From: Burkholderiales bacterium
GTDB taxonomy: Bacteria > Pseudomonadota > Gammaproteobacteria > Burkholderiales > Burkholderiaceae_D
Reading direction: 5' to 3'
Assembly: GCA_038207625.1 (NCBI GenBank)
Contig: JBBQZO010000005.1
Location: 20,247-84,246, forward strand
Length of the DNA stretch: 64,000 nt
The position numbers and the translations under genes were made by a program. Below the pieces are notes generated by a model that had not been told where the DNA came from, ran no database searches, and saw only the letters and a list, made by a program, of their open reading frames with translations. Positions 563 through 5,438 of this stretch are shown here, piece by piece. The number at the start of each line of letters is the position of its first letter. Within the stretch, counting starts at the first letter, position 1.

Positions 563-2422
563 ATGCACTCTTTGTTCAACCCCGGCAATCTGCTTGCGCC
601 CAGGAAACCTGCCTGGTGGAGCGGCTTGCTGTTGTCGTTCGGGGTCGCGCTGCTGTTCTACATGGCCACATCCGCATCGATCGAACACGATGCCGGCGAA
701 CGCTTCGAGAACATGGCACGCAACACCCAGTACACCATCAACGCTAAGATCAAGTCGTACACCGACGTGATGCGCGGCGCCGCCAGTCTGCTGCAAAACG
801 GCGCGCCGACCACCCGCGCCCAGTTCCAGCGCTACGTGACGGGACTGGATCTGCCCAAGCATTTTCCGGCCATGGAAACGGTCAATTTCGCCCTTGCGCT
901 GAGCGCACAACAGCTGCCCGCGTTCGAAGCTGCCATGCGCGCCGACAGCTCGCTGGCCAGCGACGGCTACCCGCCCTATCAGCTCAAGCCGCCCGGCGCG
1001 CGCGCGCGCTACGCGATCCTGGTGTTCGTCGAACCGATCGCGGTGGTGCATGAGCGCTTCGGCTTCGATATCGAAACCAGAGCCGGCGCCTCGCTGGCCG
1101 AATCGCGCGACACCGGCGAACTGTCGGTGACGGGCGTACCGATCATGCTCCCATCGCGCCCGCAGCATGTGGGCATGGCGATGCGCCTGCCCGTCTACCG
1201 GGCCGGCGCGCCGACCTCGAACGTGGCCGAGCGGCGCGCCGCCTACACCGGCTCGGTGGGCATCGGCTTTAGCCTGTACACGCTGATCGGCAGCGTCCTG
1301 GGCGACTCGCCCAATAACACGTTCAGGCTGGCGCTGTACGACGGCGGCAAGTACAGCGGCACGCCCGATCTGACGCACCAAGCGGGCGACCGCCCGCTGT
1401 TTAGCAACGTGCCCGCCAACGATCCCAGGCTGGCCGTCGGGGGCGCGTTCCAGCGGCCGGAATTTACGCTCACGCTGCCGATCGACTACAACGGTCGCTT
1501 GTGGAAAGCCCATTTCAGCGTCGACAAGAACGCGCTGTACACCCGTTTCGATCACTACTTTCCGTGGCTGTCGATGCTGGCCGGCTTCATCAGCACGATG
1601 TTGATTTACGCCTTGTTCTACACGCTGAGCTCATCGCGTCTGCGCGCCGTGACGATGGCCAAGGACATGACCAAGGAATTGCGCGACAGTCAGGCCAGTT
1701 TGCAGCTGTCGCATCATCAGCTGCGCGAACTGGCCGCCCACGCCGACCAGATCAAGGAACAGGAACGCAAGCGCATCGCGCGCGAGATTCACGACGATCT
1801 GGGACAGAACCTGCTGGTGCTACGCATCGAAGCCGATATCCTGGCCTCACGCACGGGCGCGCGCCACCCGCGCCTGCATGCGCGCGCGCGCGCCACGCTG
1901 GACCAGATCGATTCGACCATTAAAAGCGTGCGCCAGATCATCAACGACCTGCGCCCCAATGTGCTCGATCTGGGACTGGCGGCGGCCGTCGACTGGCAAA
2001 TCGGCGAGTTCCGGCGCCGCACCGGCATCGTCTGCGAGCAGACCAATTACCACAGCGACATCACGCTCAACGATCGCTGCGCGACCGCTTTTTTTCGCAT
2101 CTTGCAGGAGTCACTCAACAATGTGTCGCGCCACGCCGAGGCGAGCCGGGTCCAGGTGTCGCTGACGCTGATCGATGGCCGGCTGGCCATGATGATCAGC
2201 GACAACGGGGTCGGCCTGCAGGCAAACGAGCGCAACAAAGTTGGCTCGTTCGGTCTGGTCGGCATCGAGGAACGCATCCGCATCCTGGGCGGCACGTTTT
2301 CAATCATCAGCAGCCCAGGCGCCGGCACCACGGTGTACGTGTCGGTGCCGTTCCAGGCCACCGAAGCGGACGCCCAGCCGCTGGACGGGCCATACGGCGA
2401 CGACATCTTCGCCGTCATCTGA
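563..2422 (+). CDS. sensor histidine kinase with periplasmic CHASE-like domain and NarX/LiaS-type HisKA_3 + HATPase_c
   Basis: 619 aa. N-terminal TM segment, a large extracytoplasmic domain and a second TM segment. H-box 'RIAREIHDDLGQNL' and C-terminal ATPase motifs (DNGVGL, GLVGIEERI..GG). Confidence 0.85.
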   Translation: MHSLFNPGNLLAPRKPAWWSGLLLSFGVALLFYMATSASIEHDAGERFENMARNTQYTINAKIKSYTDVMRGAASLLQNGAPTTRAQFQRYVTGLDLPKHFPAMETVNFALALSAQQLPAFEAAMRADSSLASDGYPPYQLKPPGARARYAILVFVEPIAVVHERFGFDIETRAGASLAESRDTGELSVTGVPIMLPSRPQHVGMAMRLPVYRAGAPTSNVAERRAAYTGSVGIGFSLYTLIGSVLGDSPNNTFRLALYDGGKYSGTPDLTHQAGDRPLFSNVPANDPRLAVGGAFQRPEFTLTLPIDYNGRLWKAHFSVDKNALYTRFDHYFPWLSMLAGFISTMLIYALFYTLSSSRLRAVTMAKDMTKELRDSQASLQLSHHQLRELAAHADQIKEQERKRIAREIHDDLGQNLLVLRIEADILASRTGARHPRLHARARATLDQIDSTIKSVRQIINDLRPNVLDLGLAAAVDWQIGEFRRRTGIVCEQTNYHSDITLNDRCATAFFRILQESLNNVSRHAEASRVQVSLTLIDGRLAMMISDNGVGLQANERNKVGSFGLVGIEERIRILGGTFSIISSPGAGTTVYVSVPFQATEADAQPLDGPYGDDIFAVI

Positions 2423-2559
2423 GCCCTTCGGGCCCGACGAAACTCCTACCAGCCCCGTCGGACGACACGGCACGGCGTAGGAATCTACTGACGCAATGTT
2501 TGATCTAACGCAAACATGACCATTCCCTCATCCCCGAAAATGATTTCCGATGCTTTCGC

Positions 2560-2590
2560 TCAACACGTTGCAGCGTGTTGAGTTCTTTTA
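2560..2590 (+). terminator. possible terminator or regulatory hairpin after the kinase gene
   Basis: Perfect 8-bp inverted repeat tcaacacg-N6-cgtgttga followed by gttctttta. Confidence 0.3.
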
Positions 2591-2728: not shown

Positions 2729-3457
2729 ATGATCTCGAATGATGAATTCAAGGCCATCGCCGCATTGGATCTCGACCCCATCAAGGTCAAACTGATGCAT
2801 CGTGAGTCGGGCGAAGGCTGGAGCCTGGCCAAGGCAAACGCGATGGAGATTGAATATCGCCGCTTCCTGTTCCTGATGAAAAAATTCCCTCACGAGCAGA
2901 CCGCGCCACTGGTCGACGTCGACACCTTCTGGCATTACCACATTCTCGACACGATGAAATATGCGGTCGATTGCGAAGCCGTGTTCGGCCATTTCCTGCA
3001 TCACTTTCCCTACATCGGCATGCGCGGCGAGGACGATGTTGAACTGCATCAGCGCAGCGCCGCACGCATGCAAGAACTGTACGAGAGCACGTTCGGGGTG
3101 GCCTATCTGCGCGCCGCGCCAGCGACTGGCGAAGCCGACCGCGCCTACTGCGGCATGGCCAATGCCAGCGCATATTGCGGCATCGCCAATGCCAGCGCGG
3201 ATCGCGGCACGGCTACGCCAACGTCTGCTTACCGCATGATGGACGCGCCAGCGGCGAGCGCGGCGCCAACTGCCGTTGCGGCCTATTGCGGCATCGCCGC
3301 AACAGGGGCGTCACCGGCGTCCTATTACAGCAAGGCAATACAAGCGTCGTATTTCAACATTGCCGCGAAGGCCGCGTACTGCGGCATCACAGCGAACGCC
3401 GCTGGTGAACACAGCCGTTTCAATGCCCAGCGTCCGACACTGGCCATGGCCGCCTAA
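2729..3457 (+). CDS. DUF1399/GRDP-like His-rich domain protein with C-terminal degenerate AYCG repeats (paralog A)
   Basis: 242 aa. RBS aaggag 8 nt upstream. N-domain motifs FWHYHILDT, Y..DC, HHFPY. C-terminal region has 4 AYCG motifs in an Ala-rich tract. No signal peptide. Confidence 0.75.
   Translation: MISNDEFKAIAALDLDPIKVKLMHRESGEGWSLAKANAMEIEYRRFLFLMKKFPHEQTAPLVDVDTFWHYHILDTMKYAVDCEAVFGHFLHHFPYIGMRGEDDVELHQRSAARMQELYESTFGVAYLRAAPATGEADRAYCGMANASAYCGIANASADRGTATPTSAYRMMDAPAASAAPTAVAAYCGIAATGASPASYYSKAIQASYFNIAAKAAYCGITANAAGEHSRFNAQRPTLAMAA
3142..3390 (+). repeat. degenerate in-frame AYCG-encoding repeat tract in paralog A
   Basis: Repeated gcnta(y)tgcggc units at irregular spacing. Confidence 0.6.
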
Positions 3458-3496
3458 GTAGTCGTCACCGCGCACCGCACAGCATCGCTCCCCGCA

Positions 3497-3521
3497 CGCC
3501 GGACCAGTTCCGGCGTTTTTT
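3497..3521 (+). terminator. rho-independent terminator after paralog A
   Basis: cgccgga-ccagt-tccggcg followed by TTTTTT. Confidence 0.6.
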
Positions 3522-3908
3522 CGTGCTGCTGCCATGCAAGCAAACAGCGCCGCGGCGGCGCCGCCTTGGCCGCCACACCCGTCATCGCATCGCCATTTTG
3601 CGTGTTAATCATGCTTGCATGAACACCATTTAATTTCAGCAACCTTTGAATATACTGTGTAAAGTCCCCGATACCTTGTGACGCCCGGCGTTGACAAAAT
3701 TGCTGACAGGCATCAATCGAGTGCAGGTGGGTGGCGGCGGAATGCCGCACTTTCCACTATCGTTCATTGTGTTCTCCATGCGACATTGGGGGCCACGGTT
3801 CCAGTTACCAGTCCACCTCTGCATGCGCCCCACACCGGACCTCAGCGCGTACTGCGATACCAGCTTTGCCATTCAACCGACGCTTCCCCACGTAAAGGAA
3901 CTTCAATC

Positions 3909-4670
3909 ATGCATGCAAATGAACACGACGCGGCCATTGCCGACCTCGACCTCGCCCCGATCAAGCTCAAGCTGATGCACCGTGCCTCCGGCGAAGGCTG
4001 GACGCTGGGCAAGGCCAACGCGGTGGAACGTGAATACCGGCGCTTCCTGACATTGATGAAGATGTTTCCAGCCGAGCCGACGGCGCCGCTGGTGGACGTC
4101 GATATTTTCTGGCACTACCATATTCTCGACACGATGAAATACGCGGCCGACTGCGCCGTCGTGTTTGGCTATTTCCTGCACCATTTCCCCTACGTGGGAA
4201 TGCGCGGCGAAGCCGATGAGCAAGCCCGTCAGGCACATGGTGTTCGCATGAAACAGTTGTACGAGCAAACCTTTGGCGAGCCCTACCTGCCCGATGTGGC
4301 GGGCGCACCGACCAACGCCTATTGCGGCGCGGCAGGAACCGTCGCTTACTGCGGCGCCACTGCCAACGCGGCTTATTGCGGGGCCACCGCCAAGGCAGCC
4401 TACTGCGGAGCCGCAGCGACGCCGGCATATTGTGGCGCCAATGCAAATGCGGCCTATTGCGGGGCCACTGCCACGACGGCGTATTGCGGAGCTGCAACGG
4501 CGGCGGCGTATTGCGGAGCCGCAACGGCGGCGGCCTACTGCGGCGCCGCAACGACGGCCGCCTACTGCGGCGCGAGTGCGCTCAGCGCACCGACCGATCA
4601 GCATGCCCGCAACGCTAGCGGCAATGCGCATGTTTATGCTGAACGGCCCCGCCTCGACGGCGCGAGCTAG
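3909..4670 (+). CDS. DUF1399/GRDP-like His-rich domain protein with 10 tandem AYCG nonapeptide repeats (paralog B)
   Basis: 253 aa starting MHANEHD, with RBS aaggaa upstream. About 75% identical to paralog A over the N-domain. The C-terminus carries 10 repeats of 'AYCG(A)xxxx'. Confidence 0.8.
   Translation: MHANEHDAAIADLDLAPIKLKLMHRASGEGWTLGKANAVEREYRRFLTLMKMFPAEPTAPLVDVDIFWHYHILDTMKYAADCAVVFGYFLHHFPYVGMRGEADEQARQAHGVRMKQLYEQTFGEPYLPDVAGAPTNAYCGAAGTVAYCGATANAAYCGATAKAAYCGAAATPAYCGANANAAYCGATATTAYCGAATAAAYCGAATAAAYCGAATTAAYCGASALSAPTDQHARNASGNAHVYAERPRLDGAS
4316..4590 (+). repeat. 27-bp tandem repeat x10 (coding, AYCGAxxxx)
   Basis: Unit gcc-tay-tgc-ggn-gcn-n12 repeated head-to-tail 10 times. 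Confidence 0.9.
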
Positions 4671-4781: not shown

Positions 4782-4956
4782 GACGCGCGCACCATCGCAA
4801 GCGGCTGTTGCGTCACTTGCTATTTTTAGTGCCCTACTGAAAGTTTTTTCAGGAATTTGCGCTAAAATAGCAGCTAAGAAAACGCATTGCGTACGTCGCA
4901 TGATGCGCTCAACAAGCCCAGGCGCATGCCTGCGGCCAACCCACATCGAGGCCTCT

Positions 4957-5133
4957 ATGGCAGTCAACGCTATTACATCGAACAACGTCCCCGCCGCCGC
5001 TGCGGCGCCCAATCCCGCTACCCGGATCGACAAGCCGATCGAAAAGAGCGTCGAACCAGCCCCCCAGGCTGTCGCACCGAGCGTCAATACCAGTGGTCAG
5101 ACCACCGGCACCACCATCAGCACATCGGCCTGA
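4957..5133 (+). CDS. small Ala/Pro/Thr-rich hypothetical protein (58 aa)
   Basis: ATG with a gagg Shine-Dalgarno site 5 nt upstream. Low-complexity product. Codon bias is roughly consistent with coding. Confidence 0.3.
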   Translation: MAVNAITSNNVPAAAAAPNPATRIDKPIEKSVEPAPQAVAPSVNTSGQTTGTTISTSA

Positions 5134-5198: not shown

Positions 5199-5438
5199 TT
5201 ATGCCGCCATCAAGGCGCGCAATTCCCGAATACTGAAATCGCTGATTTCGTGCATGCGGATCAGGATGGTCGCGCCGATCGGCAAGGTCTGGTGACGGAT
5301 CTTGCTGATGACGGGCGGGGCAACTTCCAGCGCGCGCGACAGGGCCGCGTCATTTTTCAGCTGAAGTTTGTCGATGATGGCGTCAAGCACCTTGTTTGGA
5401 TTATAACTGGCGGTATCAGGGAGTCTGCGGATTGGCAT
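5199..5438 (-). CDS. Cro/CI-type HTH DNA-binding protein, YdaS/Cro-like
   Basis: 79 aa. 'LSRALEVAPPVISKIRHQTLP..IRMHEISDFSIRELRA' resembles YdaS/P22-Cro-like HTH proteins (by recollection). Lies in a lower-GC stretch. Confidence 0.55.
   Translation of the reverse strand: MPIRRLPDTASYNPNKVLDAIIDKLQLKNDAALSRALEVAPPVISKIRHQTLPIGATILIRMHEISDFSIRELRALMAA

Follow-up and report, generated by a model that had tools for sequence, protein, structure and literature searches.

A GRDP-like protein family with repeated aromatic-Cys/Ser cassettes, paired with CHASE sensors in Burkholderiales: a candidate two-part signalling module

Introduction

The glycine-rich domain proteins of plants, GRDP1 and GRDP2 (PF07173, GRDP-like or DUF1399), join a conserved domain to a low-complexity tail. 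In the present study, we describe bacterial proteins with a homologous core, W-H-x-H-x-L...Y..DC, and the same plan of domain plus tail, the molecular function being known for neither. They are encoded by two adjacent paralogous genes, here called A and B, within 64,000 nucleotides of a Burkholderiales bacterium (GenBank assembly GCA_038207625.1, contig JBBQZO010000005.1, positions 20,247 to 84,246 of the forward strand), the whole of which is referred to as the window. Each protein has a conserved N-terminal domain (the N-domain) and a tail of short repeated units (the cassettes), and A follows directly upon the gene of a transmembrane sensor histidine kinase with a CHASE domain. Judged from sequence comparison, A and B together with this upstream kinase (563-2422) look like a conserved two-part signalling module. 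The bacterial proteins differ from the plant GRDPs in having a family of their own, PF27765, and matching only the last third of PF07173, in tails made of ordered cassettes with an invariant Ala-aromatic-Cys/Ser instead of Gly-rich stretches, and in the pairing with CHASE sensors, which has not been described for plants.

Other systems resemble these proteins in their construction. In the burpitides, made by BURP-domain copper cyclases, and in the borosins, domain and core repeats lie in one polypeptide (PMC12186524; 10.1101/2021.12.24.474128). A and B likewise hold a conserved, His-rich domain and several cores in one chain, an arrangement that needs no separate maturase, but they share no more than the logic: by prediction the N-domain is an unrelated domain of six helices, Pfam gives only the GRDP-like match in A and B and no methyltransferase domain or BURP domain with its four Cys-His motifs, the aromatic residue of the cassette is replaceable by Met, Leu or His and its nucleophile by Ser, and catalysis by the N-domain is purely conjectural. 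Precursors of peptides that are made by the ribosome and modified after translation (RiPPs) such as the dikaritins (UstA) and the cyanobactins (PatE) carry, as the proteins studied here do, tandem identical short cores with recognition or spacer sequence behind a conserved N-terminal region, in a copy number that varies with the species. In cyanobactin cores Cys, Ser and Thr are converted to azolines, and the AYDG recognition element of PatE is reminiscent of the AYCG of our cassettes. In contrast to those precursors, the N-terminal part of A and B is a folded conserved domain of 127 residues and not a short leader.

The gene pairing itself calls to mind the peptide-pheromone systems agrBDCA and comCDE, in which the precursor gene adjoins, or shares an operon with, the genes of a sensor kinase and a regulator; the same holds at three of our loci (L085, L182 and L185, labels as given below), the last in an order like that of comCDE. 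The agr specificity groups, like the modules described below, set a hypervariable precursor and sensor domain beside conserved kinase cores, and in the agr autoinducing peptides Cys is replaceable by Ser, giving a lactone in place of a thiolactone. The receptor here, however, is a CHASE/HisKA_3 or CHASE-GGDEF-EAL protein and not an HPK10 polytopic kinase, no AgrB-like or ComAB-like (C39 peptidase) processing and export genes stand among the neighbours, and the candidate precursor is a multi-copy polyprotein of about 250 residues with a folded domain, from Proteobacteria and not from Firmicutes.

CHASE domains, those of the plant cytokinin receptors, bind small ligands, including the peptide SDF-2 via Dictyostelium DhkA, and the bacterial CHASE receptors are largely orphans (PMC1863423). 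The Dictyostelium system resembles ours in that a CHASE histidine kinase senses a peptide cut from a cytoplasmic protein without signal peptide, AcbA, and differs in being eukaryotic and in its unrelated precursor, an acyl-CoA-binding protein that yields a single peptide. Taken as a whole, the module is comparable in its working to the two-component systems of peptide pheromones and in the build of its precursor to multi-core or fused RiPPs, and it is a member of none of these. The original prediction, made from the letters of the window, knew of no bacterial system with this arrangement, and our literature search, for which subscription journals mostly lay outside the coverage, turned up no account of the family, of its cassettes or of its pairing with CHASE sensors.

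Results

Pairing with CHASE sensors

In total, 185 loci were fetched (L001-L185), their diversity being taken from a metagenome scan and from contig look-ups; 79 of them (L003-L081) are Oxalobacteraceae-like. A scan of genome contigs returned the 79 closest loci, nearly all from Oxalobacteraceae or unclassified metagenome-assembled genomes (MAGs), which are syntenic and, taken alone, weak evidence of linkage.

The kinase of the window (Pfam: CHASE, 7.9e-31; HisKA_3, 2.1e-13; HATPase_c, 1.2e-10) has hydrophobic segments at about residues 17-40 and 336-356, on either side of CHASE, and adjoins A without an adjacent response regulator. The original prediction had overlooked this sensor, the sole conserved partner of the family, and its recognition moves the interpretation from a natural product towards a signal plus receptor. 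A CHASE kinase stands no more than 1.5 kb away from 95 of the 99 Oxalobacteraceae family genes that are flanked on each side by 3.5 kb or more (L003-L081 and two syntenic contexts), a pairing that synteny alone could explain. Outside the Oxalobacteraceae, a CHASE protein was found within 1.5 kb in eight of the ten loci with full flanks. Same-strand gaps of 31-113 bp to the sensor are common, and the pairing persists where the genomic setting is unrelated and the arrangement varies: divergent (L082), kinase-regulator-family gene (L085, L182), family gene-kinase-regulator (L185), sensor-family gene, kinase downstream (L122, L134), or beside the rpoA/rplQ operon (L184 and many metagenome contigs). 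At L147, L099 and L184 the neighbour is a CHASE-PAS-GAF-GGDEF-EAL protein and not a kinase. Since the output is HisKA_3 or GGDEF-EAL depending on the lineage, the conserved link is to the CHASE domain and not to the output.

Recurrent neighbours in the 185 loci are CHASE sensors, response regulators and lineage-specific housekeeping genes, joined in Patescibacteria by an S9 hydrolase; all-against-all clustering of the neighbouring open reading frames (ORFs) gave, as other recurrent families, housekeeping synteny and shadow ORFs only. No UstYa/DUF3328, YcaO cyclodehydratase, PatA/G protease, radical SAM or other maturase recurs in these loci. The earlier remark that no radical SAM, YcaO, P450 or peptidase gene is adjacent holds both here and in the other beta-proteobacterial loci, and the multi-core RiPP precursor then proposed keeps its place as the best structural analogy on account of the tandem cores, but not as a class assignment, the class-defining maturase not being linked. 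At one locus (L087, 5150-8587) a TonB-dependent receptor (Plug, 1.2e-18), and no CHASE sensor, lies between two family genes, whose cassettes read ATCTEIHAD and AAKCVPVTD.

Joint diversification of cassettes and CHASE domains

Tandem modules, each a CHASE kinase followed by a family gene, occur in Massilia, with three in L038 (4583-13768) and L049 (4600-13937) and two in L074, L076 and L031, and each module has its own cassette (TAYCAGPWDK, AYCASPRI/VE, A[W/F]CASPH or AWCAGPR/W). Between the paralogous modules of L038, L049, L074 and L076 identity amounts to 90-96% in the kinase core, 94-100% in the linker with the second transmembrane segment (TM2) and 86-100% in the family N-domain, against 55-64% in the CHASE domain. 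Divergence at fourfold sites is 0.39-0.48 in the CHASE segment versus 0.03-0.17 in TM2 plus kinase. This mosaic indicates homogenisation or recent exchange of the parts held in common, with sensor domain and cassettes kept distinct; conserved flanks around distinct sensor and signal parts are the pattern of agr-type specificity groups.

Among 82 kinase/protein pairs, the distances of cassettes and of CHASE domains are correlated once kinase-core distance is controlled (partial Mantel r=0.40, p=0.001), and remain so with N-domain distance taken out as well (r=0.23, p=0.001), a result inflated by shared ancestry and supportive only; cassette and kinase distances, with CHASE controlled, do not correlate (r=-0.04, p=0.8).

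Cassettes and the C-terminal motif

Cassette positions are numbered here from the Cys or Ser nucleophile of the unit x-x-[C/S]-x. At least three copies of the unit are present in 321 of the 368 tailed members (about 87%), so that cassette tails do recur in orthologues, a point on which the original prediction had asked for comparison. Among these 321 repeat-bearing members Ala occupies position -2 in 93%, and Tyr, Phe or Trp occupies position -1 in 94%, with His, Met or Leu as rare substitutes; 216 members have Cys as their nucleophile and 105 have Ser, the latter including most Oxalobacteraceae. The median copy number is 6 (range 3-16), and the commonest period is 9 residues (range 7-36). Positions +1, +2 and +3 are near-invariant within a protein (0.99, 0.89 and 0.83; 304 proteins) and variable between proteins, and positions farther out fall to a background level of about 0.6, as spacers would. 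Invariance from +1 to +3 with background beyond points to a core the size of a heptad, [T/A/S]-A-aromatic-[C/S]-x-x-x, whose right half is particular to the lineage, and to spacers of variable length; spacing anywhere between 7 and 36 residues suggests a unit strung like beads and not a structural repeat.

That Cys and Ser are interchangeable at a position otherwise invariant speaks for a chemistry dependent on a nucleophile, and counts against thiolate metal binding as the general function. Candidates for this chemistry are an azoline, an N-to-S/O acyl shift with cleavage, a (thio)lactone, formylglycine and dehydroalanine. A Tyr-Cys cross-link, which the original prediction had in mind, proved too narrow and was rejected as the general chemistry, because Phe, Trp, His, Met or Leu can take the place of Tyr at -1 and one third of the members have a Ser nucleophile. 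Three-residue cyclophanes were set aside as well, +1 usually being Gly, and so was the sulfatase formylglycine motif C-x-P-x-R, which is approximated only in one Massilia subclade (C-A-S-P-R). In seven Duganella loci (L065, L053, L068, L071, L078, L080 and L081) His stands at -1 in place of Tyr, Phe or Trp (F/V/A-A-H-S-G-V).

Beyond the array, 284 of 429 members, Patescibacteria included, carry the motif R-P-x-[L/F/I/M/V] among their last 22 residues, in most cases 8 residues from the end, and one third of the family proteins end in -AA.

The N-domain and the family

The mean p-distance falls from 0.54 in CHASE through 0.31 in the kinase core to 0.19 in the family N-domain, by which measure the N-domain is the most constrained element of the module, beyond the needs of a passive leader. 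H71, D74, T75, Y78, D81, C82 and H91 are invariant, and H69 and H92 nearly so. Its predicted fold gave no match among the solved structures of the PDB. The idea of an Hpt phosphotransfer domain was dropped for want of fold support, the partner kinase here, moreover, not being a hybrid.

With PF07173, B scores 24.4 bits (N-domain alone, 26.2), above the gathering cut-off of 22.7, A scores 20.4 bits, just below it, and all 61 of the diverse family N-domains scanned match at E<=1 (best 2.8e-7). The alignment covers model positions 96-143 of 143, that is, the last third only, and protein residues 37-81, with no match to the whole model. The DUF1399 assignment of the original prediction was accordingly right as to relationship and too generous as to extent, and on this alignment A and B are best called 'GRDP-like related', a relationship of a sub-region and not a full DUF1399 domain. 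PF27765.1 (UCP032817-like, 'uncharacterised conserved protein') is annotated on P0001, a protein identical to B, on every listed homologue and on both paralogues of the syntenic Pseudoduganella locus, and the 70% identity of its N-domain to that of B suggests that A belongs to it too. As far as such matches tell, PF27765 is the proper, more specific home of these proteins; it and PF07173 are both families without known function.

In a search of clusters formed at 50% identity, the N-domain of B matched 5,664 at E<=1e-3, and 1,881 of these at E<=1e-10. Named Oxalobacteraceae members come from Massilia, Janthinobacterium, Duganella, Pseudoduganella, Rugamonas and Telluria, and others from Noviherbaspirillum, from MAGs of other Burkholderiales and Betaproteobacteria, and from Patescibacteria; eight large IMG/VR contigs carry distant versions. 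The relatives on these contigs (L174-L181, 47-533 kb, one labelled GVMAG) are 36-42% identical in the N-domain, which in most of them is followed by a short hydrophobic stretch and a Gly/Cys/His- or Ser-rich tail, e.g., GHGCGHGCGGHGCGGGGCGGGGCGGGCSS. Such tails recall the plan of the plant 'glycine-rich domain protein'. In P0125, P0169 and L117 (247-1236) the tails resemble translations of out-of-frame repeat DNA (NRVVVGYRE..., GLLRRSGQAG..., SRLTARLRLLPRR...) and are probably frameshift or assembly errors within the repeat arrays of public data.

Members with a single Cys-rich tail (e.g., ...CSSCGPESCGGPGCVNSEC...RPQL) come largely from Patescibacteria and have no CHASE neighbour. In five distinct contexts of the Patescibacteria type (L146, L160, L162, L167/L168 and L169/L170) an orthologous hydrolase of about 305 residues, of the prolyl-oligopeptidase family Peptidase_S9, is adjacent, and L145 has a weaker S9 hydrolase match beside the family gene. 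A serine hydrolase of post-proline type, placed next to a protein in whose tail R-P-x-L is the most conserved element, points to processing. At L169 (6001-8707) the family gene, the Peptidase_S9 hydrolase and a 316-residue protein without Pfam match are inserted between rpsS and rplB of the operon for ribosomal proteins.

Genes A and B in the window

As the original prediction had it, A and B are two adjacent paralogues that share the His-rich motifs (FWHYHILDT...Y..DC...FG and HHFPY), both on the + strand and each with a ribosome-binding site (Table 1); the identity of their N-domains (residues 1-127), put earlier at about 75%, was measured as 70% (89/127, ungapped), and that of the full-length proteins is 50%. 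The repeat counts given before stand: B has ten AYCG units at residues 137-221, spaced by exactly 9 residues, and A has four exact units (residues 139, 148, 185 and 216) besides the decayed ADRG, AYRM, SYYS and SYFN. Tandem Repeats Finder reported a 27-nt period with scores up to 223. The ten units of B are written with mixed synonymous codons (GCC/GCT/GCA/GCG, TAT/TAC, TGC/TGT, GGC/GGG/GGA) under a constant peptide, which argues for purifying selection on the peptide instead of a conserved DNA repeat and, thus, for translation of the repeat; an assembly artefact is excluded, because the architecture recurs in hundreds of independent genomes and metagenomes. On both counts the doubts raised beforehand about the repeat region were removed.

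The start of B is most plausibly the ATG at 3909 (preceded by AAAGGA), where homologues have their equivalent beginning, and not the upstream GTG at 3678 given by the ORF finder. The hairpin and T-run after A suggest a transcript of its own for B, and a shared regulatory motif, sought in the upstream regions of A and B, gave nothing convincing. NCBIfam, PADLOC and PHROGs had zero matches for A or B, and PADLOC had zero for the kinase too. A stretch in another frame of the spacer between A and B, 'AYCDTSFAIQPTLP', was considered as the relic of a third tail and rejected, its local alignment scores lying within the shuffle range.

Table 1. Features of the kinase gene and of genes A and B, in window coordinates
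Feature	Position	Strand	Description
Transmembrane sensor histidine kinase	563..2422	+	TM1, periplasmic CHASE (aa 84-263), TM2, HisKA_3, HATPase_c; directly upstream of A
Terminator-like hairpin between kinase gene and A	2558..2583	+	11-pair stem, then T-rich tail; consensus match only
Gene A	2729..3457	+	242 aa; UCP032817-like/GRDP-like
N-domain of A	2729..3109	+	FWHYHILDT at 2927-2953; HHFPY at 2999-3013; family-invariant residues
Cassette array of A	3143..3400	+	Exact AYCG units at nt 3143, 3170, 3281 and 3374, plus decayed copies
C-terminal R-P-T-L motif of A	3431..3442	+	Protein A ends ...LAMAA
Intrinsic-terminator-like hairpin and T-run after A	3496..3526	+	8-pair, 6-GC stem, then TTTTTCGTGC
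Gene B	3909..4670	+	253 aa; UCP032817-like/GRDP-like; identical to P0001
N-domain of B	3909..4289	+	Predicted six-helix domain; FWHYHILDT at 4107-4133; HHFPY at 4179-4193
Cassette array of B	4317..4586	+	Units A-Y-C-G-A-x-x-x-x, exact 27-nt period
C-terminal R-P-R-L motif of B	4644..4655	+

Downstream of B, on the opposite strand (5199-5438, -), lies a gene of 79 residues without Pfam match and with weak PHROG matches to HTH transcriptional regulators (E about 1e-3). In Pseudoduganella (L001) the paralogue pair is likewise followed by a gene equal in size and orientation, and in the metagenome contig L002 by ones of 82-90 residues; the gene of the window could be a local regulator, its linkage being seen within the Oxalobacteraceae and not beyond. 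The gap of 530 bp after B also holds a putative gene, a 60-residue ORF rich in Ala, Pro and Thr (4949-5133, +; MAVNAITSNNVPAAAAAPNPATRIDKPIEK...), with no Pfam or PHROG match. Elsewhere, the sole Rfam match in the window is Betaproteobacteria_toxic_sRNA (RF02278; 23500-23562, +; 55.2 bits against a gathering score of 50, E=2.4e-8), and ARAGORN found no tRNA gene in the 64 kb.

Discussion

The architecture of the family, its conservation, the gene pairing and the joint diversification of cassettes and CHASE domains are established, and the module is real, widespread and apparently undescribed. As to what it does, we put forward, tentatively, that the cassettes may be units of a polyprotein precursor yielding the ligand of the cognate CHASE receptor. 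The precursor would be a soluble polyprotein made of a constrained His/Asp/Cys-rich helical N-domain, of [T/A/S]-A-[Y/F/W]-[C/S]-x-x-x cassettes with spacers, and of an R-P-x-L end-piece; its cassettes would be modified at Cys or Ser, possibly by the protein's own N-domain, and then excised and released. The released product would be the ligand for the periplasmic CHASE domain of the cognate sensor, and the output would run by way of HisKA_3 with a GerE-type regulator, or else, depending on the lineage, by way of cyclic di-GMP. We favour this model as the simplest that joins the selected architecture, the conserved and often operonic CHASE pairing, the duplication of whole units, the divergence of CHASE and cassettes, and the peptidase partner of distant members. 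Furthermore, the extreme conservation of the N-domain, together with the lack of any linked enzyme, makes self-modification an attractive conjecture. It is a bolder thought, which we hold to be rather on the doubtful side, that the N-domain is a self-acting, probably metal-dependent modifying enzyme fused to its own multi-copy substrate, and that the product is a diffusible signal read specifically by the co-evolving CHASE neighbour.

A number of observations weigh against the cassettes as a source of ligand. Topology is the main weakness: A and B have no hydrophobic segment, signal peptide or transmembrane segment and thus lack a signal for export, nor do the beta-proteobacterial loci have a conserved neighbour of the exporter, protease or modifying-enzyme kind, the S9 hydrolase included, for which tblastn found no homologue in the window or in those loci. 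For SDF-2 both the processing protease and the exporter (TagC) are known. Modification, cleavage, export and ligand binding are steps that we infer from comparative genomics. Additionally, four family loci have no CHASE neighbour (L004, L162, L159 and L171), and in a further exception, L183 (4945-7536), the upstream gene encodes a PAS-PAS-HisKA-HATPase kinase with no CHASE among the matches listed. Within the window, co-transcription of kinase, A and B is doubtful, as terminator-like hairpins stand between them. The Gly/Cys/His-rich tails of viral and other distant relatives look more like those of metal binders. Finally, besides the shared ancestry that inflates the Mantel correlation, CHASE domains and repeat arrays could each be evolving fast for unrelated reasons.

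Several other explanations have been weighed. Conceivably, the protein is a cytoplasmic multivalent adaptor or regulator, whose disordered tail of short linear motifs, aromatic 'stickers' with spacers, is never cleaved and binds a partner in the sensor pathway or forms a condensate. A soluble protein without export signal, spacers of low complexity rich in Ala, Gly, Thr and Lys with aromatics placed at regular intervals, and tight co-location, often co-orientation, with sensor and regulator would all fit, and plant GRDPs are also built of a domain and a low-complexity tail (PMC4299439). Contact between tail and sensor, however, predicts the opposite of what paralogous modules display, namely a cytoplasmic sensor part 90-100% identical beside differing CHASE domains and cassettes; the partner's cytoplasmic output also varies by lineage between kinase and GGDEF-EAL, a strict Cys/Ser nucleophile after Ala-aromatic in 87% suggests chemistry and not mere stickiness, and the S9 hydrolase partners in Patescibacteria point to processing. 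We regard such an adaptor as unlikely, though deserving of attention. The same hydrolases can be read in favour of a multi-core RiPP precursor of the classical kind, leading to an antibiotic or some different secondary metabolite, with maturases, protease and exporter encoded elsewhere in the genome and the CHASE sensor regulating production only, since S9-family hydrolases (POPB, PCY1) serve in some RiPP pathways. A leader-like conserved N-domain, hypervariable multi-copy cores, a conserved follower motif, and the single Cys-rich tails of distant members, which resemble RiPP cores, speak for it too. Yet the lack of a linked maturase across about 190 loci from several lineages would be unusual for bacterial RiPPs, the gene is present in Patescibacteria with their minimal genomes, and regulation alone leaves the joint divergence of CHASE and cassettes within one genome unexplained, so that we consider this origin distinctly unlikely.

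The invariant His, Asp and Cys of the N-domain, the CxxC- or Gly/Cys/His-rich tails of distant and viral relatives, e.g., GHGCGHGCGGHGCGG, and the TonB-dependent receptor between two family genes at one locus would agree with a buffer for metals or redox, similar to a metallothionein or a chaperone. Such a buffer would bind or detect Cu, Zn, Ni or oxidants with its His-rich domain and Cys-rich tail, its expression or activity being tied to the sensor. This is very unlikely in our judgement: Ser in place of Cys, found in 105 of the 321 repeat-bearing members and most Oxalobacteraceae, abolishes thiolate ligation, and the co-variation of cassettes and CHASE would go unexplained. Nor do the tails follow the metallothionein pattern, as they lack dense Cys-x-Cys or Cys-x-x-Cys and have one Cys per cassette, every 9-20 residues amid Ala, Gly and aromatics, CxxC-rich tails being confined to distant single-tail and viral members. 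Strongly disfavoured, to the point of being hardly credible, is the notion that the tails are unconstrained, slippage-prone low-complexity sequence without function and that the N-domain alone matters. Copy number and spacing do vary widely, the array of A is visibly decaying, and some database entries have frameshifted repeat tails; but the Ala-aromatic-Cys/Ser core is kept across proteobacterial members with very different cassettes, R-P-x-L is conserved beyond the array even in members from Patescibacteria, and both the synonymous variation under a constant peptide and the invariance of +1 to +3 within a protein speak of constraint.

Should the N-domain indeed turn its own cassettes into a signal read by the CHASE neighbour, the products would represent a new family of bacterial cell-cell (or self-) signals, a large class of bacterial CHASE receptors would be de-orphanised, and a first molecular function would be at hand for the DUF1399/GRDP domain of plants, fungi and giant viruses. 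A tail modified by its own N-domain would, moreover, make the protein a bacterial parallel to the precursor fused with its enzyme that plants have in the BURP type, with a new aromatic-Cys/Ser chemistry. A linked and co-diversifying candidate source would make the ligands of bacterial CHASE domains directly testable, and the Massilia genomes with two or three modules supply a comparison of specificities set up by nature. The family is of very great size, abounds in soil Burkholderiales and extends to Patescibacteria and large viral contigs; with GRDP/DUF1399 lacking a molecular function in any kingdom, its bacterial context, with a defined partner, offers a way in.

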